Shown: piece by piece, positions 35,609 to 57,142 of the stretch
Layout of the letters: every line of letters begins with the position of its first letter
Numbering within the stretch: position 1 is the stretch's first letter
NCBI GenBank assembly: GCA_035527895.1
Contig: DATKZQ010000017.1
Location: forward strand, 3,588 to 67,587
Direction of reading: 5' to 3'
Source: Desulfatiglandales bacterium
GTDB lineage: Bacteria > Desulfobacterota > DSM-4660 > Desulfatiglandales > B25-G16
DNA: 64,000 bases
The notes under the pieces: model-generated
The model's input: only the letters and a program-made list of their open reading frames with translations
The model's database searches: none
What the model was told of the DNA's origin: nothing
Made by a program: the position numbers and the translations under genes

Positions 35609-35630
35609 AACTTTTTTCAATAGCACGTTT

Positions 35631-38713: not shown

Positions 38714-38718
38714 CTTTA

Positions 38719-41222: not shown

Positions 41223-42055
41223 CCTTTGCCGTTTTCCGTTAGAACCTCGTTCATGCTCCCCGTTCTATATCCTTCCAGATCAACCGTTACATAGGAGTAA
41301 CCCAACGTTTTGAAATAGGATACGATCTTCGAGCTCGGCTTATCACTTAACAATCTGGGAATATCTTTCTTGGGGACTTCTATTCTGGCTATGGTATCAT
41401 GATGCCTCACTCGTACGTGCGTGAACCCGAGATCCTTCAAAAAGCGTTCTGCCTTATCAATCGTGATGAGATTTTCCCTTGTTATCCGCGTGCCGTAGGG
41501 AAGGCGAGAAGCGAGGCAGGCGAAGGAGGGTTTGCTCCACGTGGGTAGGCCCATCCTTTTGCTCATGGAACGAATATCGGGCTTGGTCAGCATGGCCTCC
41601 TGAAGGGGCGATCTTACCCCTAATTCGCGGGCCGCTTCCATGCCGGGACGAAAGTCATCCAGATCATCGAAGTTGCTTCCGTCCACGACATACTTCAGGT
41701 TATTCTCTTTGGCAATGCTTGTAAGTTCGGCAAAGAGTTCTTTCTTGCACCAGTAGCACCTGTCCTTTGGATTGCTGACGAATTTAGGGTTCGTTAGTTC
41801 CCGGGTTTCGATGATCTCATGTCGTGCTTTCAGGTTATGAGCAAGGGCCTTCGCCTGTTCTATCTCTTCGGAAGGATAAACGGTGGAGCTGGCCGTAACG
41901 GCAAGGACTTTGTTTCCCAACACATCCTTGGCAACCCTCAAGAGGAGCGTGCTATCCACACCGCCGGAAAAAGCAATGAGAACGCTCTCCATATCCAGGA
42001 GAATGTCCTCGAGGTTTTGGGATTTCCCCTTTCTATTGTCTGTGCTGGTTTTCAT
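41219..42055 (-). CDS. PP-loop ATP pyrophosphatase of the LarE/TIGR00268 type (three-Cys variant)
   Basis: AFSGGVDSTLL, DRCYWCKKELF and FACLASRLPYG. The start is chosen at ATG 42055. Confidence 0.7.
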   Translation of the reverse strand: MKTSTDNRKGKSQNLEDILLDMESVLIAFSGGVDSTLLLRVAKDVLGNKVLAVTASSTVYPSEEIEQAKALAHNLKARHEIIETRELTNPKFVSNPKDRCYWCKKELFAELTSIAKENNLKYVVDGSNFDDLDDFRPGMEAARELGVRSPLQEAMLTKPDIRSMSKRMGLPTWSKPSFACLASRLPYGTRITRENLITIDKAERFLKDLGFTHVRVRHHDTIARIEVPKKDIPRLLSDKPSSKIVSYFKTLGYSYVTVDLEGYRTGSMNEVLTENGKG

Positions 42056-42101
42056 GGCAACCTTTGTCTCAATTCCGTCCGTTCTAGGTCCTTCGAGGAT
42101 A

Positions 42102-42815
42102 TTAACCGCACCCACAATCTCCGCCGGTCGCACAGGCAGCGACATCAGGGCAGTCGTTGCTGCCGCAGAGCATCTTGAGAAGGGTTACGCTCACGAAATC
42201 CGCTGCCCGGTAGAGCTCGTCAGTGGTTTTCCCTTCGATGACGAATTTGCCGTCTCCAAAAACCCTTACCAGCGTCTCTCGGCCCCCGCTCTTAGGGCCT
42301 TTTATTTGGATTACAGGAGTCATGGGCGTGGCATCCGAGTCCAGTGACTGGATCTGAGAGCCATCCTTAACGGAACTCGGTGACTTGCTGCCGGGTTTTG
42401 TGTAGGCGATACCATTGAATTTGTTACGATTGACGATCTGCAGATAGAGCGCCAGGTCTCTTACGGCCGGCATGACTTCATCCTCCTCATCCGGGTTTAT
42501 CAGTATGGTAGTGCGAACCACTTTTTCACCCATCATCCCCAGCAGAAGTGCCGAGTGTTTGGCGAGCATGTCCTTTCCCGGGGCGTCGAGGGTTACCGTA
42601 AGGGCCTCTCTTGGGTCTGTCTTGAAGGGAAAGCGTGCTCCCCTGGCCTCAATATAGTAATAACCCAGTTTGGAATCATAGTCTACTTTCCCCTCGTACA
42701 TGCCCAGCTGGATCCTATCCGAATTTTGAGGCTCGGGCAAGGACCAACTGTCCAATTTTAATCCTATAATAACCAGCACCGCAATGGAAAAGAACATAAT
42801 TTGTTTGCCTTTCAT
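42102..42815 (-). CDS. Membrane-anchored hypothetical protein with a Cys-rich C-terminal tail
   Basis: N-terminal anchor MKGKQIMFFSIAVLVIIGL and C-terminus ...LCGSNDCPDVAACATGGDCGCG*. The start overlaps the stop of the ABC ATPase gene by 1 nt. Confidence 0.55.
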   Translation of the reverse strand: MKGKQIMFFSIAVLVIIGLKLDSWSLPEPQNSDRIQLGMYEGKVDYDSKLGYYYIEARGARFPFKTDPREALTVTLDAPGKDMLAKHSALLLGMMGEKVVRTTILINPDEEDEVMPAVRDLALYLQIVNRNKFNGIAYTKPGSKSPSSVKDGSQIQSLDSDATPMTPVIQIKGPKSGGRETLVRVFGDGKFVIEGKTTDELYRAADFVSVTLLKMLCGSNDCPDVAACATGGDCGCG

Positions 42816-43468
42816 TACATTATCCTCCCGTCTACAATTTCTATTTTTCTCTTGGCGAAATCCGCAATTGCAGCATCATGCGTCACCAAGAGCACGGTTA
42901 CCCCTTGTCCGTTGAGTTCCTTCACATATCCCATGAGATTCTCTCCGGTTTTGGTGTCCAGATTTCCGGTGGGCTCGTCTGCCAGTATGACAGAGGCATT
43001 ATTTGCTAAGGCGCGCGCAATGGCGACCCGTTGCTGCTCGCCTAAGCTGAGCTCAGAGGGCAGATGGAAGAATCGGTCTTTCAAGCCGACCTTCTCCAGC
43101 AATTGGCTGGCTCTGGCCCTCTGTTTGGTGGGATGTGCCCCGGCGAAATAGAGCGGTATTTCTACGTTTTCAATAGCTGTAAGGTACGAAATGAGATTGA
43201 ATGTCTGAAACACGAAGCCAAATTTCTTCCTCCGGAAGGCCGCCCGTTCCCGCGGCCCCAGTTTTCCAAGCGATACGCCGTCAACCAGGGTTTCGCCCGA
43301 TGTTGGGGTCAATAACCCCGCGACCAGATTTAGGAATGTGGTTTTACCGCTTCCACTAGGACCGACTATTGCGATAAAGTCGCCATTCTCTACCTGTAAA
43401 CTAACGTTGTTCAGCGCTCCAATGCTCCCATAGGACTTTGTCACGCTCTTCAGTTCGATCATTCTCAC
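42815..43468 (-). CDS. ABC transporter ATP-binding protein (MacB/LolD-like)
   Basis: Walker A GPSGSGKTT, signature LSLGEQQRVAIARAL and Walker B ILADEPTGNLD. Confidence 0.9.
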   Translation of the reverse strand: MRMIELKSVTKSYGSIGALNNVSLQVENGDFIAIVGPSGSGKTTFLNLVAGLLTPTSGETLVDGVSLGKLGPRERAAFRRKKFGFVFQTFNLISYLTAIENVEIPLYFAGAHPTKQRARASQLLEKVGLKDRFFHLPSELSLGEQQRVAIARALANNASVILADEPTGNLDTKTGENLMGYVKELNGQGVTVLLVTHDAAIADFAKRKIEIVDGRIM

Positions 43469-44610
43469 ACCTCCTGTAGCGCCTCAACCGGGTCAAGTTG
43501 GGCGGCCCTTTTAGCCGGCAATATACTCGCTGTGATGCAAATGGCCGTTGAGATAGCAACGGAATACGGTAAGAGATGGAGTATTGGCGGGACAGGCGTA
43601 CCGGCAAGCTGGGGGCCTGCCGCCATCGAGATGATCGTACCCAATGCGTAACCGGCGAGACCGCCGATCACGCCCAGAAACAGGGCCTTTAGGATAAAAA
43701 ACGTGTATAATTTCCTTGCATCGGCTCCAATGGCCAGGAGAATGCCGATCTCGTGGCGACGATCAGACACGGTTGAGGACATGTAATTCATCACGAGAAA
43801 ACCGCCCAGACATAATACGACAATGTAAACGATGCGAATAAAGTCCTCGATCTTGGTAAGGGTGCCGATCTGAGCTTCGGCTATCTGTTTCACCGGTATC
43901 ACCCTGGCATCGTCTGGGAGCGCTTTGTCTATCTCATCGGCGATATCATAGAGGTTCATGGTGGAGCACGAGATACAGCTGGTAGAGACCTCGATCACGT
44001 TCACCAACCTTTCTCTCCCGGTGAGGCCCTGCAAGATATGTAATGGTACGAATGCCATGAGATCATCGGCTGAACCGGTTTCGTCCAAGATCCCGCTTAC
44101 CCTGAATACCTCATCCCCGAGCTTTACCTGGCTGACAGGCCCTACATGAGCCGCTGTGTAATGGCCCAGAAGGATTTCGTTGCCTTGTGGGAACTGATCA
44201 GTAACTATTTTCCTGTCGATCATCCACCAGGGTTTGGCCTTGATTTCGTCCTCCGTAATGCCGGCCACTGAAAGGCTGACATCACCAACCACGAAACGTT
44301 CATGCAATTTGGGCGATACCGCCACGATCATTCCGCCGTGCTCTATGGTTTGTATCCTTTTACCGTATACCTCGGGCAGCAACGCGGTGCCCTGTGTTAG
44401 GGCGTTTGTGTCAAAGAGCTCGCCGCCGGGCTGGATGATGATATTCGCGCCGAATCTCAAGAGCTGCTCTTTGGCCTTATCATACAAGGCGCTGTTGATA
44501 GTCTGGGCAGCCACAAAGATACTGATACCCAGGAGTATACATAGGATACCGGCTGTTGTTTTCCTCTTCCTGCGACCCATTTCTTTGGTTACAAATTCTA
44601 CTGTTCGCAT
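43465..44610 (-). CDS. ABC transporter permease (FtsX/MacB-type)
   Basis: One N-terminal TM, a ~230-aa extracytoplasmic domain and three C-terminal TM segments. It overlaps the ATPase gene by 4 nt. Confidence 0.8.
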   Translation of the reverse strand: MRTVEFVTKEMGRRKRKTTAGILCILLGISIFVAAQTINSALYDKAKEQLLRFGANIIIQPGGELFDTNALTQGTALLPEVYGKRIQTIEHGGMIVAVSPKLHERFVVGDVSLSVAGITEDEIKAKPWWMIDRKIVTDQFPQGNEILLGHYTAAHVGPVSQVKLGDEVFRVSGILDETGSADDLMAFVPLHILQGLTGRERLVNVIEVSTSCISCSTMNLYDIADEIDKALPDDARVIPVKQIAEAQIGTLTKIEDFIRIVYIVVLCLGGFLVMNYMSSTVSDRRHEIGILLAIGADARKLYTFFILKALFLGVIGGLAGYALGTIISMAAGPQLAGTPVPPILHLLPYSVAISTAICITASILPAKRAAQLDPVEALQEV

Positions 44611-44673
44611 TGTCTCCTACCTCAAATCCCTCAACCAAGACATCAGAACCTTGGTCGACTGATGGCTTACAAC

Positions 44674-45414
44674 TTACAGCGTTCCCTTCTTGATGAGTTC
44701 TTCGGATACCCCCGAAGGCGCTTCTATGGTTTCCGGTCTATTATTCAGATATTCCCGTAATTCTACAGGTTTGTTCTCTTTTGACTCTAATTCCTTTATT
44801 CGTTTCTCGAGTTTTTTCTGCTCCGTGAGCACGAACTGAATGGCATCGGCTATCGGGTCGGGCAGGTTTCCATGCTCCAAGGCCCGGATCTCCTTTGATG
44901 AAAACTCTTTACCTATCTTTCCGGGTACACCGACTACCGTAGCCCCTGGGGGCACGTCTCGGACAACGACGCTGCCGGCGGCGATTCTGGCTCCATCCCC
45001 AACGGTAATGGCTCCCAGAATTATCGCCCCTGCTCCAACGACTACGCGATTTTGCAACGTGGGATGGCGCTTCTTCTTTTCCAGGGTTGTGCCGCCCAAA
45101 ACCACGCCTTGGTATAACAGAACATCATTGTCGATCTCGGCAGTTTCACCTATGACCACCCCCATACCATGGTCGATAAAGAACCGCCGGCCGATCTTTG
45201 CTCCAGGGTGAATCTCGATGCCGCATAATGATCGGCCGATATGGGATACAAGTCTCGCGACAAAAAAGAACTCATGCCTCCAGAGCAGGTGGGCTATTCT
45301 ATGTAACCAGAGGGCATGAAGCCCGGGATAGCAGATGAGGACCTCCAGCACGCTCCTCGCTGCTGGGTCCTTCGCGAACACTGTTTGGATATCCTCTCGA
45401 ATTCTCTCAAGCAT
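44674..45414 (-). CDS. cysE: Serine O-acetyltransferase
   Basis: [55 protein letters not shown] and hexapeptide repeats. Confidence 0.9.
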
Positions 45415-45460
45415 TTGAACTACTCACCCATGTTTTCAGGATATTTCGTATTCTGAGCCA

Positions 45461-45868
45461 TTAGAACCTTACCTCCATTGCCCGTAACGGGCAGGCCTTG
45501 ACGCAGAGCCCACAGGCAACGCATTTGGTGTCATGAAAATGAACCTCTCTCGTTACCGGTACAACCTCAAAGGCAGCAGCCGGGCACAAAGGAACACAGG
45601 CACCACAGTGACTGCACCTTGTGCTATTGCGAACAACATCTTGAGATAGGGGCTGCAATTTTACTCCCACCTCCTTCAGATACTGGATACCTCGTTCATA
45701 GTTCTTTTCTTCACCACCCAATTCCAAAACCAAGAGGCCTCCTTCCTCTGCGGTAATATAGGCCTTGAGAATGTTAAATTCGAGGTCATAGTCTTTGACC
45801 AACCTATGCACGATGGGTTGATCGGCCAGCTTATACGGAAAATGGAGTACTATTCTTTGAGAGATCAT
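45461..45868 (-). CDS. NIL domain / 2x[4Fe-4S] ferredoxin fusion (homocysteine biosynthesis partner, MA1822-like)
   Basis: An N-terminal NIL-like domain is followed by CSHCGACVPLCP and CVACGLCVKACP. GGAGG lies upstream of ATG 45868. Confidence 0.7.
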   Translation of the reverse strand: MISQRIVLHFPYKLADQPIVHRLVKDYDLEFNILKAYITAEEGGLLVLELGGEEKNYERGIQYLKEVGVKLQPLSQDVVRNSTRCSHCGACVPLCPAAAFEVVPVTREVHFHDTKCVACGLCVKACPLRAMEVRF

Positions 45869-45951
45869 CTTAACAACCTCCAAGAAGCGGAAATGGGGAA
45901 GGCGCAGATCAGGTATATTCTCATCTGCGCCTCCCGCGCTTTCCTTTCAGC

Positions 45952-47166
45952 CTATTTTTCAAGAGGCCTTTCCCTAAGCGGTTTGCACGTGGTGCCCGTT
46001 TCAGGCCCTGGGAAAAAGCCTACCGGTTCAGTGAGCAGAAAGTCCCCTTTCTCAATCCATTCCTTTAATGTTTTGGCTATCTCTACTGCCTTGGGATAAC
46101 TTGAAAGGCTCCCGGTGGGAACCGCCATGCCTTGAACGGTGATCTTACCGCTCTTGAGCTGGGCGTAGTTCACTTCGCCGAGGCTCCCCTTTTTTCCCTG
46201 AGGATAGCTCTCGCCGTAGTCGACGATCTGAGTCCATAGCTCCTCGTCATTTACTGCGGTATACGTACACATTTCCTCATTTAGGATGGGAATCGGAACG
46301 CCGATGCCAACGGTAAGGGTTGTTCCGTAACCTTGCATGGATGTACCTGCCAGCCATTCGGCGCTCATCTGTTTCAAATCTCCGATAACGGCTAAGGTTC
46401 CTGAAGGAACACACGGTGTACCGTTGTCTTTGCGCTGAACCGCGGGGTTAAACTGAGTCCCCTGCCAGACTACGTAGCCGATTCCCCCTCCCAAGAAGAT
46501 TCTTGTGCCGATGCCAATTGTCTTATAATAGGGATCGTTCAAGAGAGGAGAGAGCTGCCCAGCGCTGCAATAGTTAGCACTGCCTAGATTGGGCTTGAGC
46601 ATCCCCATGTAAGTATAAATAGCCGTATTACCCAGGTTAACAGCTACGTTGTAATTCTGGTAGGCATTCCTGGGATTGAAAAGCACCGCTTCATTGAGAT
46701 CTCTAATATTGACCCAGGTTTCCAGTTTCCTCCTTGGATAACAATCTGTTCCGTAAGCATTGGCAACCAGCTTTAGATCTTTGCCGGCTACCAAATCTTC
46801 GATTACGTGACCACCACCGTACCTGAACTCACCGGGGAAGGTTTTATTCCTCGGGTCATCATCAGGTAGAGCGGTTGCCCCGATGAAGGTATCGACGGCA
46901 GCAAGGCCGGTATAAAGAGGCACGTCATTCAGATAGGCCCGTTCTCCACCCAGTTTTATCTTAGGGGTGCTGTGCCCGATGTTAAAGTAGGCACCGGATG
47001 AACACATCGGACCAAAGGTACCCGTTGTGACCACGTCCACCTGCTGAGCTGCTTTCTTAGCTCCCTTCTCTTCGACAATGTCGATAATCTCCTCGGCAGT
47101 CACTACGACTGCCTCTCCTCTCTTGATCTTTTCATTGATCTCTTTGATGGTCTTAGCCATGTTCAA
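45952..47166 (-). CDS. COG1900/DUF39 homocysteine biosynthesis protein (MA1821-like)
   Basis: A 404-aa protein: KTIKEINEKIKRGEAVVVTAEE...VDVVTTGTFGPMCSSGAYFN.... It is adjacent to the NIL-ferredoxin gene. Confidence 0.7.
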   Translation of the reverse strand: MNMAKTIKEINEKIKRGEAVVVTAEEIIDIVEEKGAKKAAQQVDVVTTGTFGPMCSSGAYFNIGHSTPKIKLGGERAYLNDVPLYTGLAAVDTFIGATALPDDDPRNKTFPGEFRYGGGHVIEDLVAGKDLKLVANAYGTDCYPRRKLETWVNIRDLNEAVLFNPRNAYQNYNVAVNLGNTAIYTYMGMLKPNLGSANYCSAGQLSPLLNDPYYKTIGIGTRIFLGGGIGYVVWQGTQFNPAVQRKDNGTPCVPSGTLAVIGDLKQMSAEWLAGTSMQGYGTTLTVGIGVPIPILNEEMCTYTAVNDEELWTQIVDYGESYPQGKKGSLGEVNYAQLKSGKITVQGMAVPTGSLSSYPKAVEIAKTLKEWIEKGDFLLTEPVGFFPGPETGTTCKPLRERPLEK

Positions 47167-47649
47167 CCTCTTCGAGTAGTGTTAATTATTACATTCTAAC
47201 TCAGGCCGTCACGCAATAGTGGCCCTCAAGGGCCTCTGCATGATCCATGGCATCACCACTATTTGGTTTTTTGAGACTTCTCGGTGTATCATCTTGCCTA
47301 AATCCCTAAGCTCCTTTATTCGCCTTCGCCAGAATAGGCTGCAGCTTGCTGTAGGGTCCTGCTCGACACGGATGGCGAGGCGACCGCGCCGACTTGTCCC
47401 GCCGAAGTTTTGACGAAGCCGGAAGCTCTCAGAGCGCCCGTCCTCGTCCGACGCCATAGGCTATGGCCGACGGTGTCCGCAGGCCTGCTCCGCCATAGTA
47501 GCCAAAAAGGCTACGAAGGCCGGGTAACCCTATCTACGGAGGATGGAAAGACGAGCGGCTTCGGCCGAGTTCCGCTTGACTTCGTCATAGATGCCCCGCG
47601 CGGAAGCGCGGGGAGCTTCACTTTTGTGTGTACTAAATCTAAGCCTGTG

Positions 47650-48051
47650 CTACGGTTCATGATGGGAATCCTGAGGTTGCAGCAGATATGATAGAACCTC
47701 ACAGTTCCGGCAAATCTTCATCTTTTCATTCCAGTTCTTATGGACAATACCCCCACAAATGGTGCCGTTAATAAACCAACAGAGCCTCCCGGCCCGGAAT
47801 TCCCAGGCAGGGCATTGCTTCTTGCGATCGGGAGGGCATCTTTTGATAACCCAGCAAGCCTTTCCTTCGTTCTGATCTCCCCTTTTCCTCGACACCAAGA
47901 AAAAAAGCTGCCGCTCCACATGGGCTGGCACCGATCGCCATCCCTGCTCATAGCTGTGCACCGCTTTGAGCGAGGTGCCCAAGAGTTCGGCCAGCTGTTT
48001 CTGTGTCTTGCCCAGCTTCTTACGGGCCTGCAGAAATTTTTCACTGTCCAT
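47650..48051 (-). CDS. XRE-family HTH regulator with a Cys-rich C-terminal domain (two CW dipeptides)
   Basis: HTH LGKTQKQLAELLGTSLKAVHSYEQG, then CWVIKRCPPDRKKQCPAWEFRAGRLCWFINGTICGG...CRNC. The start is placed by comparison with the paralogue. Confidence 0.7.
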   Translation of the reverse strand: MDSEKFLQARKKLGKTQKQLAELLGTSLKAVHSYEQGWRSVPAHVERQLFFLVSRKRGDQNEGKACWVIKRCPPDRKKQCPAWEFRAGRLCWFINGTICGGIVHKNWNEKMKICRNCEVLSYLLQPQDSHHEP

Positions 48052-48102
48052 ATGGGCCCTTAGCACGGTTTTGGTTAATCCCAAAAGGCGTCATAATTTA
48101 GA

Positions 48103-48131
48103 AAAATACCACGCTGTGGTACTTTTGTCAA
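48103..48131 (-). promoter_or_regulatory. Sigma-70-type promoter with a palindromic operator in the spacer
   Basis: The minus strand reads TTGACA-17 nt-TATTTT. The spacer contains TACCAC-N3-GTGGTA. The same architecture occurs at 50185..50213. Confidence 0.55.
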
Positions 48132-48305
48132 CTAGAAATACCTTCCTTGAAAAAATTTCCTTCGAGGATAGGGACGGGTTGGTGTGAAGGGCTGTAATTG
48201 TTACGACGAAAAGTGTGTGTGCCAGGTGGGGTCTTTCCGGATCACCAGTGCCGTGGCCTATAGACAGTGCGATTTGGGCTGCCAAGATGCGATCTTTTTG
48301 AGTTT

Positions 48306-48647
48306 TTACTCCCCTTCATCCAGGGCGATTTTCCTTACGGTGATTTCCCAATCGGTATTATCGATCCGAGTTACTGACAGAATCTCATGTCCCTCGTTTT
48401 TCAAACTTCTGGGAACATTCTCTGCAGAGGGAGGGTAGTCCACAGTTACGCGCAGCACCTCTCCAACCTCCATTTCCTCCAGGGCGAGCAAGGACTTGAC
48501 AAAGGTATAGGGACACACTTCTCCTTTGAGATCGATCTCCCGATTAATTTTCGGTGCTTCATTGGTCTCATTTCTGGCTCCGCAGATTTCTTCCGGTCTA
48601 GCTTCGGCGCGCATCGTGCCTCCTTTCGAATTCTTCTGGTGTTTCAT
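48306..48647 (-). CDS. TusA/SirA-like sulfurtransferase
   Basis: DLKGEVCPYTFVKSLLALEEM carries the Cys-Pro motif. It follows the MoeB/ThiF gene after a 7-nt gap. Confidence 0.75.
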   Translation of the reverse strand: MKHQKNSKGGTMRAEARPEEICGARNETNEAPKINREIDLKGEVCPYTFVKSLLALEEMEVGEVLRVTVDYPPSAENVPRSLKNEGHEILSVTRIDNTDWEITVRKIALDEGE

Positions 48648-48654
48648 ATGTATC

Positions 48655-49458
48655 CTAACTGATTCTGCAAAACTGTTCGTAATCGATGAGTTCTTTTATG
48701 GTAGGGCTGTTTCCACAAAGGGCACAGTCGCCTCTGTGACTGACCTGTACTTTCGAAAACTCCATGTGTAGTGCATCAAATAGTAGCAGCGTTCCTGTCA
48801 GCGGTTCTCCTAAACCCAGGATAAGCTTGATCGCCTCATTCGCCTGGATGGCGCCGACAATTCCGGTAAGGGCACCCAAGACGCCTGCCTCCTGGCAACT
48901 GGGTACCATGTCCGGCGGCGGTGGGGCAGGCCATAGGCAGCGAAGGCACCCATTGCCGGGAACGAATACAGTAACTTGACCTTCAAATCGTAAAATGCCA
49001 GCATGGACGTCGGGCTTGCCCGCTAAGAAGCAGGCATCGTTCACTAGATACTTCGTGGGGAAGTTGTCGCTACCCTCGACGACAATATCGTAGTCGGCAA
49101 TGATGTCCATGATATTCTCTGAGGAAAGCCGCAACGGGTACTGGACGACTTCGACGTCAGGGTTTATGTCATTGAGTGCTTCCGCTGCAGAAACCACTTT
49201 TGGTCTCCCGAGGTCGCGGGTGTGGTGAAGAATCTGGCGCTGTAAATTGCTCAAATCGACACGATCAGAATCACAAATCCCGAGCTTCCCTACCCCAGCT
49301 GCTGCTAGGTATATGGCCGCTGGAGAACCTAAACCTCCTGCACCGACCATGAAAACCTTGGCCTCCAGGAGTTTCCTTTGTCCTTTTCCTCCGACCCCGG
49401 GGAGGACAATTTGACGGCTATAGCGCCTAATCTGTTTTTCTGTTAAACCCATGTACAT
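48655..49458 (-). CDS. MoeB/ThiF/HesA-family adenylyltransferase (E1-like)
   Basis: YSRQIVLPGVGGKGQRKL, VGAGGLGSPAAIYLAAAGVG, CLRC and CALC. Confidence 0.85.
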   Translation of the reverse strand: MYMGLTEKQIRRYSRQIVLPGVGGKGQRKLLEAKVFMVGAGGLGSPAAIYLAAAGVGKLGICDSDRVDLSNLQRQILHHTRDLGRPKVVSAAEALNDINPDVEVVQYPLRLSSENIMDIIADYDIVVEGSDNFPTKYLVNDACFLAGKPDVHAGILRFEGQVTVFVPGNGCLRCLWPAPPPPDMVPSCQEAGVLGALTGIVGAIQANEAIKLILGLGEPLTGTLLLFDALHMEFSKVQVSHRGDCALCGNSPTIKELIDYEQFCRIS

Positions 49459-49708
49459 TTTTGCCTCGTCCGCGCTCGTGCTATGTTACTGCCGAATTCA
49501 ATATCGCAAGGCATTCTTTAGAACCCTATTATGTATCGCCCCGTCTGCCTGGGCTAGGTGTCCTGCAGAACTTACACATGCCCCTATCAATGTTGAATTC
49601 AGCGATATGATATGCATTTCTATTGATCAGAGGTTTGTGGCAGTTACAGCTTTCGGTTCATAGATGCAGGCACTCTTGCCCCTTTGACTTTGCAAAGTCT
49701 CTAATTGA

Positions 49709-50137
49709 TCAAACACCTCGATGCCTTCGCTCCTTTAAGAGCGCCTTAGCGCTTAGGTGTCGTTGCAGGAAAGAATAAAACACCTCGCTGGATCCGCAGA
49801 CCTTCATATTTACGTGATAGTTTTCTCGCACTTACCCTTCGAAGCTGGTGCCGTTGATGAACCAACAAAGCGTCCCAGCCTGGAACTCCCATGCAGGACA
49901 TTGCCTTCTGCGCTCGGGAGGGCATTCTTTGATAACCCAGCAAGCCTGCCTTCCTTTCTGATCACCCCTTTTCCTTGAAACAAGGAAGAAGATTTGCCGT
50001 TCCACATGGGCTGGCACCGATCGCCACCCCTGCTAATAGCTGTGAACTGCCTTAAGCGACGTGCCTAAAAGCTCAGCTATCTGTTTCTGAGTCTTGTCTA
50101 ACTTGTTACGGGCCTGAAGGAACTTCTCTCTGTTCAT
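49709..50137 (-). pseudogene. Decayed paralogue of the XRE/Cys-rich regulator (two in-frame stops)
   Basis: MNREKFLQARNKLDKTQKQIAELLGTSLKAVHSY-TAG-QGWRSVPAHVERQ...CWFINGTSFEG-TAA-VRENYH.... The stops are at 50033-50035 and 49832-49834, and the Cys ligands CGG are replaced by FEG. Confidence 0.75.
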
Positions 50138-50184
50138 AGCCTTCTCTAAAGATCTCCTCGGGAATGTGAAGAAACTCTTGAAAT

Positions 50185-50213
50185 TAGATACCACAAAGTG
50201 GTATTACTGTCAA
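50185..50213 (-). promoter_or_regulatory. Sigma-70-type promoter with a palindromic operator, shared divergent region with the NRAMP gene
   Basis: The minus strand reads TTGACA-17 nt-TATCTA. The spacer contains ATACCAC-N3-GTGGTAT (50188-50204). Confidence 0.5.
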
Positions 50214-50270
50214 TATAAAAAGCTCTTCTTCCATTGGGGAAGGGGATTCATTTGGAGGAGGCTAGTCTAA

Positions 50271-51482
50271 ATGCTAAGAAGATGGCCTACATATTTCCGT
50301 CAGATGGGGCCTGCCTGGATCATTAGTGCCGTAGCCTGTGGACCTGCCACGCTTGCCAGTGTATGCATCGCAGGGGCCTCCTACGGGTTTGAGCTCTTGT
50401 GGGTTGTAATCTTGAGTGCGATCTTTGGAGCTACTGCTCAATACCTTGGAGCCAGAATCGGAATCCTGGAGGGCAGGGGAGTTATTGCCACAGTTGAAGA
50501 CCGTCTCGGCCCCATTTGGGCGTGGGTTTTGGCCATTGATGCCGCTCTTGCAACGTATCTTGCCGCACTGGTCTTAATGAACGCCTTGGTTGGCGTCACC
50601 TCAATTGTAACGGGGATTGAGAGCCCCTGGTGGGGAATACTGTACGCAATCATAATCTCACTGGCGCTGATTCGTGGCGGTTACCGGTGGTTTGAGAACC
50701 TTTGCAAAGCCCTTGTAGGGTTCGTGGTGTTATGTTTTATCATAACGGCGTTCCAGGCCGATTTCACGGTCGTTGATGTCGTTAGAGGTATTCTCCCCAA
50801 CATTCCTGGCGGGATTGACTCGGCCCTTATGATTGCGGCCATATTGGGAGGTGCCGTTCACATAACCATCATCGGCATGCACAGCTATAACACCAATGCC
50901 AGGAAGTGGTCTAGAAAAGACCTGGGTTTGGCCCGGTTCGACAACACCCTTTCCATGGGATTCGCCTTCGGCATTTACAGCGTGGCCATTTTTCTCGTGG
51001 CTGCCGCGGTTTTGCATCCAAACCAGATAAAGGTAAAACTGGCCACCGACGCTGCTTTGAGCCTTGGGCCATTGCTTGGTAAGCATGCAATGGTCATATT
51101 TCTCATTGGTTTGTGGGCCGCTACCCTTTCTACCATATCACCTACATTTTTGGCCGGCACCTATTTCATATTTGACAAAATGAAATGGGACATGAACCCT
51201 GAAACTAGAAAATTCCATATGGTTATTCTCGGGGGAGCATTGTTGAGTGCGTTCGGCCCATTTATGAAGGGAAGTTTTTTCCTGCTTCTTCCGCTGATGC
51301 TCGCTCTTGGACTGTGCGGGACCCCGCTCATTATTGCCATTATGCTCTATCTGCTAAATAAAAGGAACATAGTGGGAGAATACAGGAATTCGGTTGTGCT
51401 TAATGTCTTGGGGGGCCTCACCCTTTTGGTGACGAGCGTGGTTGCAGTGAGATTCATTCTAGTTAAGGTTGGTTTTGTTTAA
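50271..51482 (+). CDS. mntH: NRAMP-family divalent metal transporter
   Basis: A 403-aa polytopic protein with MGPAWIISAVACGPATLASV and typical NRAMP N-terminal motifs. Confidence 0.8.
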   Translation: MLRRWPTYFRQMGPAWIISAVACGPATLASVCIAGASYGFELLWVVILSAIFGATAQYLGARIGILEGRGVIATVEDRLGPIWAWVLAIDAALATYLAALVLMNALVGVTSIVTGIESPWWGILYAIIISLALIRGGYRWFENLCKALVGFVVLCFIITAFQADFTVVDVVRGILPNIPGGIDSALMIAAILGGAVHITIIGMHSYNTNARKWSRKDLGLARFDNTLSMGFAFGIYSVAIFLVAAAVLHPNQIKVKLATDAALSLGPLLGKHAMVIFLIGLWAATLSTISPTFLAGTYFIFDKMKWDMNPETRKFHMVILGGALLSAFGPFMKGSFFLLLPLMLALGLCGTPLIIAIMLYLLNKRNIVGEYRNSVVLNVLGGLTLLVTSVVAVRFILVKVGFV

Positions 51483-52036
51483 TGCCGTCGCAAACTAAGC
51501 ATGAAAGAGGAATGAGCGTTCACGAATTCAAGAACAAAAAGATCATTATTGTGGGTGAGGTGAACACCGGGAAAACGACCTACCTGAGCAAACTCATAAA
51601 CGAATTCATCTTCGAGGGTGAAGATGACCTTGCCCTCATAGATATGGCCCCAGAACGGACGAAAGGCGTTGGCGGAAAGATGAACATAGAGGCCGGTGAT
51701 GTTATAAGGTGTTACACAGCACCAATCGTGGCACCCAGGCTCATGGGGAGGAGCACTGATGAAGTCGAGACGCTGGCGAAACAAAATGCGGAATTGATAG
51801 AGAACATCTTTCTCGAATACCTAAAGAATCCCGGCAAGACCCTTTTTGTAAACGATATTTCACTCTACTTGCAGGCCGGAGCGCTTTACAAACTCCTTTC
51901 ATGGCTCAACTCAACACCCACGGTGATTATGAACGGTTATTACGGATCGAGTCTTGGGGGAGGGGAACTGGGAAGGAGGGAGAGAAAGAACATGCAGTCT
52001 CTTATGGAAAGGTGCGATCGGATAATTCAGCTTTGA
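51482..52036 (+). CDS. P-loop NTPase of unknown function
   Basis: Walker A GEVNTGKTT. The ATG overlaps the NRAMP stop (TAATG). ATG 51512 is an alternative start. Confidence 0.55.
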   Translation: MPSQTKHERGMSVHEFKNKKIIIVGEVNTGKTTYLSKLINEFIFEGEDDLALIDMAPERTKGVGGKMNIEAGDVIRCYTAPIVAPRLMGRSTDEVETLAKQNAELIENIFLEYLKNPGKTLFVNDISLYLQAGALYKLLSWLNSTPTVIMNGYYGSSLGGGELGRRERKNMQSLMERCDRIIQL

Positions 52037-52209
52037 GAAAACCATCGCAATGCTCTTCAGAGAGGCACCCAGGCTGTCCGGTCGAAGGCGACAACTTATT
52101 TAGTTCATTGCCCCACATGAGTTCATCGTTTTCCAGAGTTGTTGCTTTTGAATCGACCTGATATGTGATTAAGTTAATCAGAGACGTTTCAATTGAAAGG
52201 GAGGATTCC

Positions 52210-52539
52210 ATGAAATATAGAAAGATTCTCTTGTTCCTGGCAGCGGCTGGTCTTTTACTACTTTACGTTTCACAAGCCCTTCTAGCGGCCACACCTGAGG
52301 CAACGGTTAAGTTAACCGTACCGAATTTGCCTGCGCCAGGTGGTGGGTGAGGTGATCCACAGGAAGGGATAAAGTCTATCCTGACGAGTATTGATGGCAT
52401 AACGAAATACCATCTTGACGCAGAAGCCTTCACGGTCACGGTTACCTTTGATGATAGTAAGACCACCGTTAACCTGATCATGGAAAGGCTTGCAAAGGGA
52501 GGCTACCCGGTCAAAGGCGAACCCCGTTGGGTAGAGTAA
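52210..52539 (+). CDS. Secreted HMA-like protein with an in-frame TGA (candidate selenoprotein), copy 2
   Basis: GGGAGG RBS and a signal peptide. The frame reads ...PNLPAPGGG-TGA(52348-52350)-GDPQEGIKSIL...FTVTVTFD...GGYPVKGEPRWVE*. Confidence 0.65.
52366..52382 (+). promoter_or_regulatory. Candidate SECIS upper stem-loop
   Basis: GGGATA-aagtc-TATCCT lies 15 nt after the TGA and is homologous to 36617..36635. Confidence 0.45.
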
Positions 52540-52696
52540 TTCTGCTCATCGCCCTGCCCATTGCCGGTTAGGATCATGGGCAGGCTTAGCCTAAGGAGGG
52601 TCTTGCCATAAGGAACATGTGGAAGAACCCTTCCTCCTGTCCTTATCCTGTTGCCGTGGGCGGAAAGCTCTCAGGCGCGCCGATCTGATGTGGACA

Positions 52697-52969
52697 TTAG
52701 CCTCCCGCAATCATGAGGGTTATTGAGAGCTTATCGCCGTCCTTGACCGGTTTGGCAAGTTCCTCCGGGTAGGAGCTTTCGGCGTTGACGTAGATATCAA
52801 TATAGTTGAGCAGCTTTCCCTTCTTGTCGAAAAGCTTGCTCTTGATGTCGGGAAACCTCTGCACCAAGTCAGCGAGGCACTCACCTACGGTGGCACCTGA
52901 AACGTTAACTGTGGCCTGATTGTTCGTGATATGGCGTAATGCCTGGTGAATATTTACCGTTATGCTCAA
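52697..52969 (-). CDS. MoaD/ThiS-family ubiquitin-like sulfur carrier
   Basis: A 90-aa protein ending ...ITLMIAGG*, with the C-terminal Gly-Gly. It follows ThiF after a 3-nt gap. Confidence 0.8.
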   Translation of the reverse strand: MSITVNIHQALRHITNNQATVNVSGATVGECLADLVQRFPDIKSKLFDKKGKLLNYIDIYVNAESSYPEELAKPVKDGDKLSITLMIAGG

Positions 52970-52972
52970 TTC

Positions 52973-53716
52973 CTACTCCTTTCTCGTCGCCTGACCGCAG
53001 TGCTCGCAATGGGGGTCTTTCTTGACCCTCAATTCGGTGAACTGCATGCTGAGCCCGTCATAAATTAAGAGTTTATTGATCAGAAGTTCACCAACCCCCA
53101 CGAGGTACTTTACTGCCTCGGTTGCCTGAATGCAGCCGATAACCGCCGGTGTAACTCCAATCACCGGGAATTTCTCTTCAGGAATAACCCCCCGATACAC
53201 ACATCTGAGGCATGCCGATTTGCCGGGGACGATGGTCATAGCCCTTCCTTCGAACCCGTAGACTGCTCCATGAAAGAAGGGGATATTGTTTTCGATGGCG
53301 ACCTTGTTTAACAGGTATCTCGTGGGCAGGTTATCCATGGCATCAACAATGAGATTGCAGTCGGATACCAGGTGATCGAGATTGGCTTCCGTTATCGTAT
53401 CTCCGATGGCCTCTATTTTCACGTCCGGATTCAGTCTCATGAGCTTTTCTTTGGCTGAGTCAACCTTGCTCTTGCCCCGGTCTTCATGCCAGTGCAGGAT
53501 CTGCCGATTCAGGTTGCTGAGCTCGACCGTATCATGGTCAACGATTCGTATGCTGCCAATGCCGGCCGCAGTCAAATAGACGGCAGCCGGAGACCCGAGC
53601 CCGCCAGCACCGGCGATGAGCACGCGGGCCTTCTTGAGCCTTTCTTGCCCTTCCTCGCCGAAGCCCTGAATCATTATTTGCCGGTCATACCGTTCTCGTT
53701 CACGAGCGGTTAACAT
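52973..53716 (-). CDS. ThiF/MoeB/HesA-family adenylyltransferase (E1-like)
   Basis: YDRQIMIQGFGEEGQERL, AGAGGLGSPAAVYLTAAGIG, CLRC and CEHC. Confidence 0.85.
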   Translation of the reverse strand: MLTARERERYDRQIMIQGFGEEGQERLKKARVLIAGAGGLGSPAAVYLTAAGIGSIRIVDHDTVELSNLNRQILHWHEDRGKSKVDSAKEKLMRLNPDVKIEAIGDTITEANLDHLVSDCNLIVDAMDNLPTRYLLNKVAIENNIPFFHGAVYGFEGRAMTIVPGKSACLRCVYRGVIPEEKFPVIGVTPAVIGCIQATEAVKYLVGVGELLINKLLIYDGLSMQFTELRVKKDPHCEHCGQATRKE

Positions 53717-53733
53717 ATGCTCATTACTCCCTG

Positions 53734-54057
53734 CTATTGCGTCTCTTCGCCTATCCAGTTTAAATAGTCGGGGTTACCACCGATGATAGGCAAGGCGATT
53801 ACCTCCGGGACGTCGTAGCTATGAATCTCTTTGACCAGGCTAACGATCTCATCAAGCGACGAGGCCTTACTCTTAACAATCAGGAGGCTTTCCTGATCGG
53901 AATCCATTCGGCCTTCCCACCAAAAGAGGGATGTAACCGTGGGCACGATATTGACGCACGCCGCTTTCCTGTGCTCGAGGAGTGCTTCGGCTACTCGCCG
54001 GGCTTCTCCATCGGTGCCGGTGGTTATCAAAATGACTATATTCTGATCATTTTCCAT
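53734..54057 (-). CDS. cutA: CutA1 divalent-cation tolerance protein
   Basis: ACVNIVPTVTSLFWWEGRMDSDQESLLIVKS...HSYDVPEVIALPI. Confidence 0.8.
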   Translation of the reverse strand: MENDQNIVILITTGTDGEARRVAEALLEHRKAACVNIVPTVTSLFWWEGRMDSDQESLLIVKSKASSLDEIVSLVKEIHSYDVPEVIALPIIGGNPDYLNWIGEETQ

Positions 54058-54826
54058 GAGACACCACCCTCCAGCTATGGGTGTAAACATTCATCCGGTT
54101 TTCACGGACAAAACCAATGAGCGTTATACCCAGTTCGTCAGCTAGTTTTACCCCTAGATTTGTGGGAGCGGATTTCGATATGAGGAGTGGGATCTTCCTT
54201 TTAGCCGCCTTGCTCAATATCTCAGAGGATACCCTCCCACTGGTAACAAGCAGGCGATCATGAATTGGTATATCCTTTAAGAGGCATTCACCGAAGACCT
54301 TATCAATAGCATTGTGTCGCCCGATATCCTCACTGAAGACCAGGATGCTCTTCGTATCGCATAAGGCAGCACTGTGCACACCACCGGTAGACTCGAATAG
54401 TTCAGAGCGGTGAACGAATTGTTCAACGAGATTGAGAACCTCAGAAGGCGAAAGGTGGATGGGCGTGTCTATCTTCGATCGTGGATCAATGCCGGCATAA
54501 GGAGAGCCTCCCTTTCCTCCGCTTGAGCCAATGAGCCGCTTAGAGAGAATATCCTCTGGGAACTTCTGAGGCATTTTGGTTGCCACCCTCACAAGGCTTC
54601 CCTCGGCATTAAGATCTATTTCTTTGATGTCGTCTTTGCTGTTTATTAAGCCTTCTGAAAACAAAAAGCCAATCGCGAGACAATCCAGCTTTTCCGGGGA
54701 GCACAAAAGCGCCACCAGTTCGCGGTCATTCAGGACGATCGTGAGGTGGAATTCCTTTACAACAATGTCCTCCATCTCCATTATTCTGTCCCTGGTTGCG
54801 CGGAGGATGGGGAATTTATCCAACAT
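54047..54826 (-). CDS. fdhD: Formate dehydrogenase accessory sulfurtransferase FdhD, paralogue 2
   Basis: TGGVHSAALC, EDIGRHNAIDK and SGRVSSEILSK. It is clearly paralogous to 37916..38713. Confidence 0.85.
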   Translation of the reverse strand: MLDKFPILRATRDRIMEMEDIVVKEFHLTIVLNDRELVALLCSPEKLDCLAIGFLFSEGLINSKDDIKEIDLNAEGSLVRVATKMPQKFPEDILSKRLIGSSGGKGGSPYAGIDPRSKIDTPIHLSPSEVLNLVEQFVHRSELFESTGGVHSAALCDTKSILVFSEDIGRHNAIDKVFGECLLKDIPIHDRLLVTSGRVSSEILSKAAKRKIPLLISKSAPTNLGVKLADELGITLIGFVRENRMNVYTHSWRVVSHGK

Positions 54827-55271
54827 TTCCGATCCTTATTGGGTCTCCAGCTCTGATAACCCCGCCACGGATTACCCTGGCGAAGACACCCTCTGTGGGC
54901 ATAACACACGTGCCTGCCTGCCGGAAGATCGCACATTTGGCGTGGCACTCCTTGCCGAATTGGGTAAGTTCAAGGACGGTCTCATTTCCAACAGTGAGAT
55001 GTGTGCCAATGGACAGGGACAGGAGGTTTATCCCCTTGGTTGTCAGATTCTCAGCAAAATCCCCGGGGCCAACATCGAAACCAAGGCCTCTCATCTTCTC
55101 AATGCTTTCAACGGCCAACAGGCTTACCTGGCGATGTGTACAGGGGTCGGCATGGGCATCGCCAAGAAAACCAAAATCCTTTTCAGCAGTAGCCTCTGAC
55201 ACCGTCTTTTTTCTCGTGCCCTTTGTCTTGCTGGTGCATACAGCAACTATGTTCGCCACCGAAGACTCCAA
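54816..55271 (-). CDS. MOSC domain-containing protein
   Basis: HRQVSLLAVESIE, GDFAENLTTKGINL and ELTQFGKECHAKC in a 151-aa protein. Confidence 0.7.
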   Translation of the reverse strand: MESSVANIVAVCTSKTKGTRKKTVSEATAEKDFGFLGDAHADPCTHRQVSLLAVESIEKMRGLGFDVGPGDFAENLTTKGINLLSLSIGTHLTVGNETVLELTQFGKECHAKCAIFRQAGTCVMPTEGVFARVIRGGVIRAGDPIRIGNVG

Positions 55272-55276
55272 CTATC

Positions 55277-55738
55277 TCAAAACCCAATGCGTCTTTCAGA
55301 TTTTTGCTCTTCTGCGTATTCTGTACATCTCTTTCTATGCCGGTCTACCAAATCCTGCAAAGTGATAGAATCGAGCAAGCTGTCGCAGGCCCTTTTCATC
55401 TCCACCCAGACTTCGCGAGTTGTGCATTCGTTGCTTTGGGTACAGAACCCAGGCTCATCAACACAAGGTACAGGTGCCGTCGAACCTTCTGTAACCTCCA
55501 TGATTTCAGTGAGCCATATTTCTGAGGGCGGTCGAGCCAGCGTAAATCCACCCGAAGCGCCGCGAGCGCTCTTCACCAGGCCCGCTGATCTGAGGGGAAT
55601 AAACAGTTGCTCGAGATATCCCCGAGATATACTTTGCCTTTCAGAGATATCCTTTACCAATACCGGACCCTCTCCAAGATGGAGGGCCAAATCAAGCATA
55701 GTCCGTGCGGAATATCTTCCTTTTGTAGAGAGCCTCAT
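55277..55738 (-). CDS. Rrf2-family transcriptional regulator (IscR-like, Cys-containing)
   Basis: MRLSTKGRYSARTMLDLAL, ISRGYLEQLFIPLRSAGLVKSARGASGGFTLA and the Cys cluster PCVDEPGFCTQSNEC. Confidence 0.85.
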   Translation of the reverse strand: MRLSTKGRYSARTMLDLALHLGEGPVLVKDISERQSISRGYLEQLFIPLRSAGLVKSARGASGGFTLARPPSEIWLTEIMEVTEGSTAPVPCVDEPGFCTQSNECTTREVWVEMKRACDSLLDSITLQDLVDRHRKRCTEYAEEQKSERRIGF

Positions 55739-55933
55739 CGCGGATTTATGGCACATACTTTACTAATAAATAATTATCACAAAGACAGAATCTGTCAAGG
55801 TACCAATTGTCAATTGACCGGCATCAACGGGATTCAGACTAAAAAGATTACTGAGGAAGGCCTTTGGCACAATCAATCGAGAGGGCAGACCTGTTGCACA
55901 ATATGAGTCAACATAATGGATGAGGAGGGATGG

Positions 55934-57142
55934 TCAGATTATGCCTAGTTTTTTTCCTTCCTGTTCTGCGATTTCGAGGGTCTGATCTAGCTCTTCATCG
56001 GTATGGATGGCCATAAATGATGTCCGAATCAGGGCGCGGTTCGGAGGAACACCCGGGCTTACGACCGGATTGACATACACGCCTCTGTCAAAGAGGTTTT
56101 TCCAGAAAAGGAAGGTCTTTTGGTTATCCCCGATAATCAGGGGCACAATGGGTGTTTCGCTTTTTCCGATATTGAAACCCATGCTTGAGAAGCCCTGTAT
56201 CATTTTGCGGGCTATTTCCTGCAATCTGATTACACGTTGGGGTTCTCGTTCAATGATGCCAAGGGCCGCCATGACTGCGGCAATATTAGCAGGAGGCATG
56301 CTTGCGCTGAAGATGAGCGGTCGCGAGACATGCTTGATGTAATCAATGACCCTTTCCTCACCTGCCACAAAACCGCCTATTGAGCCGAAAGCCTTGGAGA
56401 AGGTGCACATGATCAAGTCGGGCCCTTCTTGATCGTGGTAAAATTCTGTTGTGCCGCGGCCCGTCTTACCTATTACACCTATTGCATGGGCGTCGTCCAG
56501 ATAGAGCCCGACACGGTATTTTTCGCACAGGGCCTTGAGCTCAGGAAGCTTGGCAATATCTCCCTCCATACTGAAAACACCATCGGTTACAAGCAGCTTT
56601 GCCGCTTCAGGGGGGATACCTGAGAGCTTTTTTTCCAGGTCCTCCAAATCATTATGCTTGAATCGGTGGATGTTGACTTTGCGATTTAGGCCAAGGGCGA
56701 GAAAAATGCCATCCATGATGGAAGCATGGTTAAATTTGTCGGTAAGCACGTGCTCCCCGCGCCCAACAAGTGCGGATATCGAACCCAGGTTAGTCTGATA
56801 GCCTGTGGTAAAGCAGAGAGCTGCTTCTTTGCCTACGAAGACAGCGAGCCGTTCCTCGAGTTCTTCGTGGAGGGTCAGCGTTCCATTCATGAAGCGTGAG
56901 CCGGAACAGCTTGTTCCATATTTCTTGATAGCCTCTATGCTTGCTTCGCGAACCTCCGGGTCTAAGGCAAGCCCGAGATAGTTATTTGAGCCGGCCATGA
57001 TAAGTTCCCGACCCTCAATGATTACCCTTGATCCCCGAGAGCCCTGAATGGGCTTGAAATAAGGATAAAGACCGAATTCTCGAGCTTTCACTGCTTCTGT
57101 GAAGTTATAGCATTTCTGGAAAATCCCTGGTGTACCGTTCAT
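55934..57142 (-). CDS. PLP-dependent alpha-oxoamine synthase, serine palmitoyltransferase-like
   Basis: GLYPYFKPI, AGSNNYLGL, GSRFMNGT, FNHASIMDG and TFSKAFGSIGG (PLP Lys) in a 402-aa protein. Confidence 0.6.
   Translation of the reverse strand: MNGTPGIFQKCYNFTEAVKAREFGLYPYFKPIQGSRGSRVIIEGRELIMAGSNNYLGLALDPEVREASIEAIKKYGTSCSGSRFMNGTLTLHEELEERLAVFVGKEAALCFTTGYQTNLGSISALVGRGEHVLTDKFNHASIMDGIFLALGLNRKVNIHRFKHNDLEDLEKKLSGIPPEAAKLLVTDGVFSMEGDIAKLPELKALCEKYRVGLYLDDAHAIGVIGKTGRGTTEFYHDQEGPDLIMCTFSKAFGSIGGFVAGEERVIDYIKHVSRPLIFSASMPPANIAAVMAALGIIEREPQRVIRLQEIARKMIQGFSSMGFNIGKSETPIVPLIIGDNQKTFLFWKNLFDRGVYVNPVVSPGVPPNRALIRTSFMAIHTDEELDQTLEIAEQEGKKLGII

Follow-up and report, generated by a model that had tools for sequence, protein, structure and literature searches.

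New bacterial selenoprotein families turn up regularly, and HMA-domain selenoproteins are already known. The described ones are NF041115 with a UxxU motif, the MerT/CopZ fusion-like NF045683 and a cation-transporting ATPase with UxxC (PMC13188914, Table 1). They occur in anaerobic hosts and carry the selenocysteine (Sec, U) in the metal-binding loop of the HMA domain. The periplasmic Hg(II) binder MerP of mer operons (TIGR02052; PDB entries 1osd and 1afi) consists of a signal peptide and one HMA domain of about 70 residues. The CopZ/Atx1 chaperones, which are cytoplasmic and carry CxxC, and the N-terminal HMA domains of P1B-ATPases (PF00403) share this fold, with the reactive residue in the β1–α1 loop. 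The window analysed here, 64,000 nucleotides of contig DATKZQ010000017.1 (positions 3,588 to 67,587 of the forward strand; assembly GCA_035527895.1) from a Desulfatiglandales bacterium, contains two paralogous HMA-like genes with an in-frame TGA, called copy 1 and copy 2 below. We describe copy 2 (Table 1), whose UGA is almost certainly read as Sec. It represents an unrecognised family, missed by standard annotation, with 66 or more distinct proteins from Desulfobacterota of sediments. The distinctive points of this putative bacterial selenoprotein family are an apparently obligate Sec, a single-ligand U-x-x-P HMA site, predicted export and systematic mis-annotation.

The open reading frame of copy 2 runs from the ATG at 52210 to the TAA at 52537-52539 and comprises 110 codons with the stop. 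Its only internal in-frame TGA is codon 47. The 30 nt preceding the ATG, with the Shine-Dalgarno sequence, are identical in loci L007 and L003, the nearest relatives of copy 2. Homologues were retrieved by scanning GTDB genomes and JGI metagenomes with the peptides FTVTVTFD and PQDRIRSIL, both away from the TGA codon. These scans gave 6 and 75 loci, and with the window copies added the set holds 86 gene copies with 65 distinct nucleotide sequences. The TGA occupies one shared column in all 86 copies, which are 42-100% identical and come from metagenome-assembled genomes (MAGs) and metagenomes. Neither Cys nor any other codon is found in this column in any of them. In copy 1 the TGA at 36600-36602 is the same aligned codon. 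Past the TGA the frame remains open over a further 62 codons in every copy, and variation there is coding-like with the third position dominant. The column entropy at codon positions 1, 2 and 3 is 0.63, 0.47 and 1.03 bits after the TGA and 0.65, 0.57 and 1.21 bits before it. In the part 3′ of the TGA, copy 2 and L007 differ synonymously in 10 codons and non-synonymously in 5. Two members (L055:318-638 and L080:3444-3656) have an extra in-frame stop at a conserved Trp (PK*VQ), three codons before the usual end; this is probably an earlier stop.

All members carry a small hairpin of the form (U/C)AGGAUA-AGGUC-UAUCCU(A/G), starting 15 nt past the UGA, that resembles a selenocysteine insertion sequence (SECIS). 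Pairing is kept in 97.7% of cells in an alignment of 50 distinct rows. The strongest sign of constraint comes from the codons themselves. Codons +6 to +10 (AGG ATA AGG TCT ATC, encoding R-I-R-S-I) show zero synonymous variation among the 65 distinct sequences. The genetic code offers three to six codons for each of these residues, and other equally conserved residues use 2-5 codons. The third-position entropy is 0.023 bits at the hairpin codons and about 1.0 elsewhere. Such absence of synonymous variation in the stem codons is strong, independent support for the hairpin. In the distant relative L089 a compensatory change from G-C to U-A gives the stem AGUAUA..UAUACU. The bacterial SECIS model (PMC13188914) asks for a loop of 3-9 nt on a stem of 4-16 bp, a G within the first two bases of the loop, a distance of 16-37 nt between UGA and loop, and a minimum free energy of -7.5 kcal/mol or lower. 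In loop, stem, G and spacing, copy 1 and the family consensus agree with it: the loop has 5 nt with G-G-U in it and starts 21 nt past the UGA, and the stem has 6-7 bp. In copy 1 the hairpin is UAGGAUA-AGGUC-UAUCCUA (36617-36635; -5.8 kcal/mol, z -2.1). The spacing, the position of the small hairpin within the reading frame 3′ of the UGA and the GGUC or GU loop are also those of the E. coli fdhF-type SECIS and the bacterial SECIS consensus (PMC13188914, section 5). Compared with these, the stem here is shorter and weaker and has no bulged U, and the copy 2 loop is AAGUC instead of AGGUC. Rfam at gathering and permissive thresholds returns no SECIS or other credible RNA family, a result that is uninformative because Rfam holds no generic bacterial SECIS model. 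The invariant 17-nt hairpin can be used as a search key to find such genes and annotate them correctly. Based on the conservation of the TGA, the downstream coding signal and the SECIS-like hairpin, the UGA is almost certainly a selenocysteine codon, and copy 2 is very probably a genuine selenoprotein gene.

The N-terminus of the protein looks like an export signal. All members have a basic start, a hydrophobic stretch of 15-18 residues and an A-x-A-like or lipobox-like end, as read by eye. The domain that follows matches Pfam HMA (PF00403) with 25.4 bits in copy 2, just above the gathering threshold of 24.8, and with 23.0 bits in copy 1, just below it. Most of this domain is encoded 3′ of the TGA. 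The top NCBIfam match is MerP (TIGR02052). Copy 2 scores 42.7 bits and copy 1 scores 31.5 bits against this model, far short of its equivalog cut-off, 92.55. Searched against PDB sequences, the family profile matches the domains of CopA, MerP and CopZ, including entries 1osd and 1afi. It aligns the Sec with the first Cys of the GMTCxxC motif, while the second Cys is matched by an invariant Pro. The two-Cys motif itself is absent, and the site is U-x-x-P in the β1–α1 loop. An AlphaFold2 (AF2) model is available for the homologue P0001, which is 56% identical to the window protein and has Trp at the Sec position. It shows a separate N-terminal signal helix, a low-confidence linker and then a β-α-β-β-α-β domain (E30-36, H47-58, E62-68, E73-79, H85-94 and E100-106). 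The best Foldseek match of this model is oxidised MerP (1osd) with a template modelling score of 0.84, and all further matches are HMA domains. We therefore hold with good confidence that copy 2 encodes an exported protein with an HMA fold.

Cysteines around the Sec are not fixed. Within positions -4 to +3, 38 of the 68 distinct proteins have no Cys, 14 have U-C, 12 have C-U, and two each place a Cys at -2 or -3. In copy 2 the residue preceding the TGA is Gly. None of the 68 has a Cys later in the domain. As the nearby Cys shifts position or vanishes, the Sec is the only conserved soft ligand. The two-thiolate HMA site is thus replaced by what would be a single selenolate and an invariant proline. 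These results bear out an earlier note, made from the letters of the window alone, which had described copy 2 as a second TGA-containing HMA-like gene with a signal peptide, a Gly before the TGA and the putative Sec as the only conserved ligand; frame, single TGA and translation match exactly. The note had also named a TGA that varies without replacement by Cys as evidence against its idea, and the TGA proves invariant.

The site separates the family from its closest relatives. Copy 2 differs from MerP in its low score, in a predicted U-x-x-P selenolate in place of two thiolates and in its surroundings, with no merR, merT or merA among the recurrent neighbour clusters or the annotated window neighbours. 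From the CopZ/Atx1 type it differs in its predicted export, its single Sec and the invariant Pro in place of the second Cys. Known HMA selenoproteins have a second Sec or Cys where this family has Pro at i+3. They also have Cys homologues, whereas the 86 copies here include none. That no Cys-containing orthologues were found suggests that selenium is indispensable to the function. Scores against NF041115 (15-21 bits, cut-off 95) and NF045683 (20-22 bits, cut-off 375) stay well below the cut-offs, and in NCBIfam release 20.0 neither a family member nor a protein of the wider clade described below reaches any model cut-off. The family is absent from the 119 families of the 2026 selenoprotein catalogue (PMC13188914, Table 1), and neither Haft's SAO selenoprotein paper nor the marine Deltaproteobacteria paper on Sec and pyrrolysine contains such a protein. 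The 'MerP' selenoprotein from the GOS (Global Ocean Sampling) study was considered and rejected as another family; its sequences (HHARTSAPAGTUCQSG...) are unrelated fragments.

Public records of the family are mostly broken. A word-indexed protein search gives only four clusters, two full-length with Trp at the Sec position and two of 61-aa N-terminal fragments, one of which is the window's own truncated reading frame. Cluster members are named 'hypothetical protein' (in a Desulfatiglandales MAG), 'cation transporter, partial' or 'copper chaperone CopZ', and all the records so named are fragments of 44-61 aa. A HMMER search of 1.84 billion representatives gives 138 matches, many of them 44-aa N-terminal or roughly 50-63-aa C-terminal fragments, a pattern typical of genes split at the TGA. 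The full-length relatives form a broader exported MerP-like clade of about 100 aa with the C-terminal motif G-x-P-x-[FW]-[LV]-[KN] in common. Some have CxU or CxxU loops, both called with Trp in place of U; other loops carry CxC, CxxC, just one Cys, or none. Three unannotated selenoprotein genes of this clade, L088:223-531 (C-V-U-P), L089:745-1059 (C-A-U-P) and L092:240-503 (C-A-S-U-G), have the in-frame TGA verified in the DNA and the same type of hairpin 3′ of it. The Cys forms P0029, P0050, P0127 and P0128 have CxC or CxxC. Sec/Cys pairs (CxU/CxC and CxxU/CxxC) are thus present in the wider exported clade, with none within the copy 2 subfamily. In L093:100-1012 the CxC form P0127 lies directly downstream of a same-strand LMWPc gene (low-molecular-weight phosphatase / ArsC-type), a single hint at arsenic. 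The context in L094 is uninformative, and with two Cys-form contexts there are too few to infer a function.

Table 1. Features of the copy 2 locus and of its paralogue in the window
Feature	Position	Strand	Basis
Paralogue copy 1 (C-U-G loop)	36468..36791	+	tblastn 45% identity, TGA aligned
NRAMP-family transporter, non-canonical metal site	50271..51482	+	Pfam Nramp 257 bits
P-loop NTPase, 184 aa, uncharacterised family	51482..52036	+	Walker A only
Shine-Dalgarno GGGAGGA (core GGGAGG 52199-52204, 5 nt before ATG)	52199..52205	+	Sequence reading
Probable selenoprotein gene copy 2 (109 aa, U at residue 47)	52210..52539	+	Open reading frame with single in-frame TGA, Pfam HMA 25.4 bits
Predicted signal peptide MKYRKILLFLAAAGLLLLYVSQALLA	52210..52287	+	Residue pattern by eye
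UGA almost certainly read as selenocysteine	52348..52350	+	TGA in 86/86 copies, aligned with HMA Cys1
SECIS-like hairpin GGGAUA-AAGUC-UAUCCU (copy 2), 15 nt 3′ of UGA	52366..52382	+	Pairing and synonymous constraint
Inverted repeat CCUGCCCAU..AUGGGCAGG, 9 bp	52553..52584	.	Between convergent copy 2 and MoaD-like genes
Convergent operon Rrf2-MOSC-FdhD-CutA-MoeB/ThiF-MoaD-like	52697..55756	-	NCBIfam/Pfam; recurs across family loci

We propose the following function for the protein. SelB and tRNA-Sec would be recruited by the hairpin and insert Sec at UGA-47. The product would be exported by its N-terminal signal peptide and fold as a MerP-like HMA domain, with an exposed selenolate at the place of the nucleophilic first HMA Cys and the Pro capping helix α1. 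Outside the cytoplasm this domain may capture a thiophilic species, which could be a chalcogen species or a soft metal ion, for example Hg(II), Cu(I) or Cd(II). The ligand could be held as a monoselenolate, bridged between two proteins or shared with a partner thiol of a TPR lipoprotein (Cys) or a transporter. The captured species might then be passed to, or kept from, a membrane transporter, possibly of the NRAMP or CDF type. Metal-related neighbours support this proposal. Neighbouring reading frames were clustered over 83 loci (66 distinct proteins), cluster representatives were annotated with Pfam, and genes within 4 kb were counted in the 43 lineages with at least 1.5 kb upstream and the 39 with at least 1.5 kb downstream. 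A CDF exporter is found downstream in 12 of the 39 lineages, and copy 2 has an NRAMP transporter with a Cys/His site upstream. Taken as a whole, an exported HMA-fold selenoprotein that captures a soft metal or chalcogen is the reading we favour as fairly probable; for metal or chalcogen capture as the function, the chances seem about even.

Several observations weigh against this reading. The hairpin is weak or borderline against the -7.5 kcal/mol threshold (core -4.5 to -8.7 kcal/mol, 45-nt region -7.5 to -9.2), and for copy 2 the values are -4.5 kcal/mol (hairpin by itself) and -9.2 kcal/mol (45-nt region). Covariation is confined to the closing pair (UA 32, CG 7, UG 4), because the stem is almost invariant and the six other pairs hardly vary. 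The loop of copy 2 (52372..52376, AAGUC, Lys for Arg) has an A where every other member has G; its G is at position 3, outside the first two positions of the SECIS model. L007 and L003 alter the last loop base instead (AGGUA), and the SECIS loop seems to be drifting in the copy 2 lineage. Copy 2 retains the G-U dinucleotide, which is the SelB contact in the E. coli fdhF element, and decoding of its UGA may be less efficient than the family norm. No selA, selB, selC, selD or tRNA gene was found within the window. In favour of selenium use, SelD (TIGR00476, 222 bits) lies 3 kb upstream of the HMA gene on the contig of the homologue L008. The export signal was judged by eye. The AF2 model of P0001 has a predicted local distance difference test value of 73, with one of five models confident and Trp at the Sec site. 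A lone ligand is atypical among HMA metal sites. There are no adjacent mer, cop or ars genes, and which transporter lies nearby varies by lineage.

The genes directly upstream of copy 2 suggest a more specific role. The NRAMP transporter lacks the usual metal-site motifs. Alignment to solved MntH/DMT structures shows CGPA for DPGN in TM1 and G-A-V-H-I-T for A..MPH in TM6. The same substitutions are found in a Desulfarculaceae homologue (L095:2790-4001), and they point to a subfamily of NRAMP proteins whose metal site is of the Cys/His type. A soft substrate, and a periplasmic accessory protein in third place, would be compatible with them. The NTPase start codon overlaps the NRAMP stop codon (TAATG), suggesting translational coupling. 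An NTPase partner is unusual for an NRAMP transporter. The NTPase has no PDB or family match beyond Walker A and no family above cut-off. Its family of 175-185 aa has 97 database matches, none of them named, and is coupled to the NRAMP variant in three lineages. Of three homologues checked, those with 49% and 53% identity follow the same NRAMP variant and overlap its stop codon with their start (L095:4001-4534 and L099:4001-4555), and the one with 38% does not. Copy 2 could be a periplasmic accessory that hands a substrate to the Cys/His NRAMP, with the NTPase as cytoplasmic partner. The three genes share a strand, NRAMP and NTPase are coupled, the arrangement is kept in L007, and in L095 (a Desulfarculaceae MAG) another signal-peptide protein, of 172 aa, takes the third position. 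A Cys/His site would suit a soft substrate. However, a gap of 173 nt separates the NTPase from copy 2; it is about 70% conserved and has weak hairpins but no decisive promoter or terminator. Promoter and terminator scans of 51900-52800 give counts at or below the shuffled expectation and so allow no statement on co-transcription. The adjacency is restricted to the copy 2 lineage, that is the window, L007 (85-89% identity) and contigs of the same organism. About 60 other lineages have no NRAMP nearby, and L099 has the NRAMP-NTPase pair with no third gene. We regard such an accessory role, which is compatible with the favoured reading of copy 2 as a soft-metal or chalcogen-capturing protein, as possible and lean against it.

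On its other side copy 2 has sulfur-relay genes. Copy 2 faces a minus-strand operon of MoaD-like, MoeB/ThiF, CutA, FdhD, MOSC and Rrf2 genes, identified by NCBIfam and Pfam matches. The inverted repeat between the two has a centroid fold of -18 kcal/mol with a z-score of only -0.38 and no U-run, and is kept in part in L007; this is weak evidence for a possible, perhaps bidirectional, terminator. Copy 1 is convergent with NadA-FdhD-MnmA-NifS. Loci of the copy 1 type have the order CinA-PgpA (divergent), HMA gene, FdhD (convergent). In the main subfamily a divergent Rrf2 gene precedes a TPR lipoprotein and the HMA gene on one strand. The convergent partner that follows is ThiS/MoaD-ThiF-(CoADR-rhodanese)-FdhD, a CDF cation exporter or a sigma-54 regulator. 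At several loci an Rrf2-FdhD-CoADR-ThiF-ThiS operon lies upstream instead, divergent from the TPR and HMA genes. Rrf2 is found upstream in 23 of 43 lineages and the TPR lipoprotein in 19; FdhD is upstream in 7 and downstream in 13 of 39, ThiF upstream in 5 and downstream in 10, and ThiS/MoaD downstream in 12. The fdhD and sulfur-relay context is a family-wide tendency and not operonic. The TPR lipoprotein gene (for example L029:5208-5888 and L019:3389-4069, both +) immediately precedes the HMA gene and shares its strand. Besides the lipobox SG[AV]GC, its product has one more Cys (EK.W.CDK), kept in 23 of 24 distinct sequences, a possible partner thiol for the Sec protein.

On the surroundings of the gene the earlier note stands in part. 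The NRAMP gene, the TAATG overlap, the 173-nt gap and the convergence of both copies with fdhD operons (nadA-fdhD for copy 1, MoaD-ThiF-CutA-FdhD for copy 2) are all confirmed. The metal-related unit of NRAMP, NTPase and HMA gene that it proposed is present in the window and the L007 lineage and absent elsewhere, where the pair precedes another protein or none. When synteny across relatives is examined, the repeated fdhD context recurs beyond the window in a large share of loci, and the NRAMP context does not extend beyond the copy 2 lineage. The suggested link to Mo/W-enzyme maturation stays speculation in its direct form, since the fdhD operons are convergent and their products cytoplasmic.

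These neighbours would suit a chalcogen carrier or redox protein, in which the selenolate carries sulfane sulfur or selenium (Se-S, Se-Se) or cycles via a selenenylsulfide, acting with the Rrf2-controlled FdhD/ThiS/ThiF/CoADR-rhodanese module. Taken at its widest, the earlier note's suggestion of a link to Mo/W-enzyme maturation amounts to this explanation. FdhD, ThiS/MoaD, ThiF, CoADR-rhodanese, NifS, NifU and Rrf2 recur nearby, convergent downstream or divergent upstream, and as they do so in differing orientations their proximity survives rearrangement. The lipoprotein's free Cys offers a possible partner thiol. In one lineage (L008:3-4209, same contig as L020) SelD, a YbaK-like gene, a class-V aminotransferase (NifS or selenocysteine-lyase-like), a HAD-like gene and the HMA gene follow each other on one strand, with a convergent CDF exporter after them. 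A single Sec with no fixed second ligand also fits a carrier or redox protein better than a classical HMA metal site. On the other hand, the proteins of the sulfur relay belong to the cytoplasm, and their genes, being mostly convergent, are not co-transcribed with the HMA gene. As the family is taxonomically narrow, the recurring synteny may be inherited rather than selected. The window holds no homologue of the TPR lipoprotein, and the HMA fold is not known to include a chalcogen carrier. We consider this explanation rather unlikely. The family raises the question whether one Sec is enough to bind Hg, Cu or Cd, or whether the HMA fold now serves chalcogen or redox chemistry in an extracytoplasmic setting. 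A further reading would be an envelope system not recognised before, distinct from classical metallochaperones, in which an obligate-selenium, one-ligand exported HMA protein works with the TPR lipoprotein (main subfamily) or the Cys/His NRAMP (copy 2). Through an intermolecular Se-S or Se-metal-S bridge it would trap either a thiophilic metal or a species of sulfur or selenium, and it would be co-regulated by Rrf2 with FdhD, ThiS and ThiF. We find this further reading decidedly doubtful.

Two readings would remove selenium from the picture. It is very improbable that near-cognate reading or a reassigned code turns the UGA into one of the standard amino acids, Trp or Cys. Some pipelines do put Trp at the Sec position (P0001, P0002 and P0005), but the DNA behind these records is TGA and not TGG. 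Of 29 other annotated genes in the window, 11 end with TGA as a normal stop, copy 1 among them, so the code is not reassigned and recoding at this TGA is site-specific. The nucleotide constraint just 3′ of the codon is what SelB-dependent recoding predicts, and in the wider clade this site is paired with Cys and, among the sequences checked, in no case with a Trp encoded by TGG. A true stop, leaving a pseudogene or a 46-residue signal-peptide fragment, would agree with gene callers and public records that annotate only fragments and is extremely improbable, given an open, coding-type frame in every copy that holds most of the HMA domain and a TGA that never drifts to a sense codon or another stop.

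A scan of the window for other in-frame-TGA read-through genes gives none that is convincing besides the two HMA copies. In L007 a ThiF-family gene (5965-7080, -) was considered as a second selenoprotein and rejected, as its in-frame stop is TAG and not TGA. This TAG, 3 kb from the HMA homologue, comes right after the conserved RQ.L, at a position that is usually Tyr, His or Phe; it could reflect a pseudogene, an assembly error or pyrrolysine. The region 34352..57142 of the window is a sulfur-trafficking island. It contains NifS, MnmA, a pair of FdhD paralogues with 55% identity, a LarE-like PP-loop ATPase, HcyBio with NIL-ferredoxin, a TusA/YedF-like protein, two ThiF/MoeB, a MoaD-like protein, MOSC and Rrf2. 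Directly upstream of the NRAMP gene, 49832..50194 (-) is a second copy of the XRE/two-CW-domain regulator at 47650..48084 (-). It has an in-frame TAG at 50033-50035, where the intact paralogue has Glu, lacks the C-terminal part and is probably a pseudogene.

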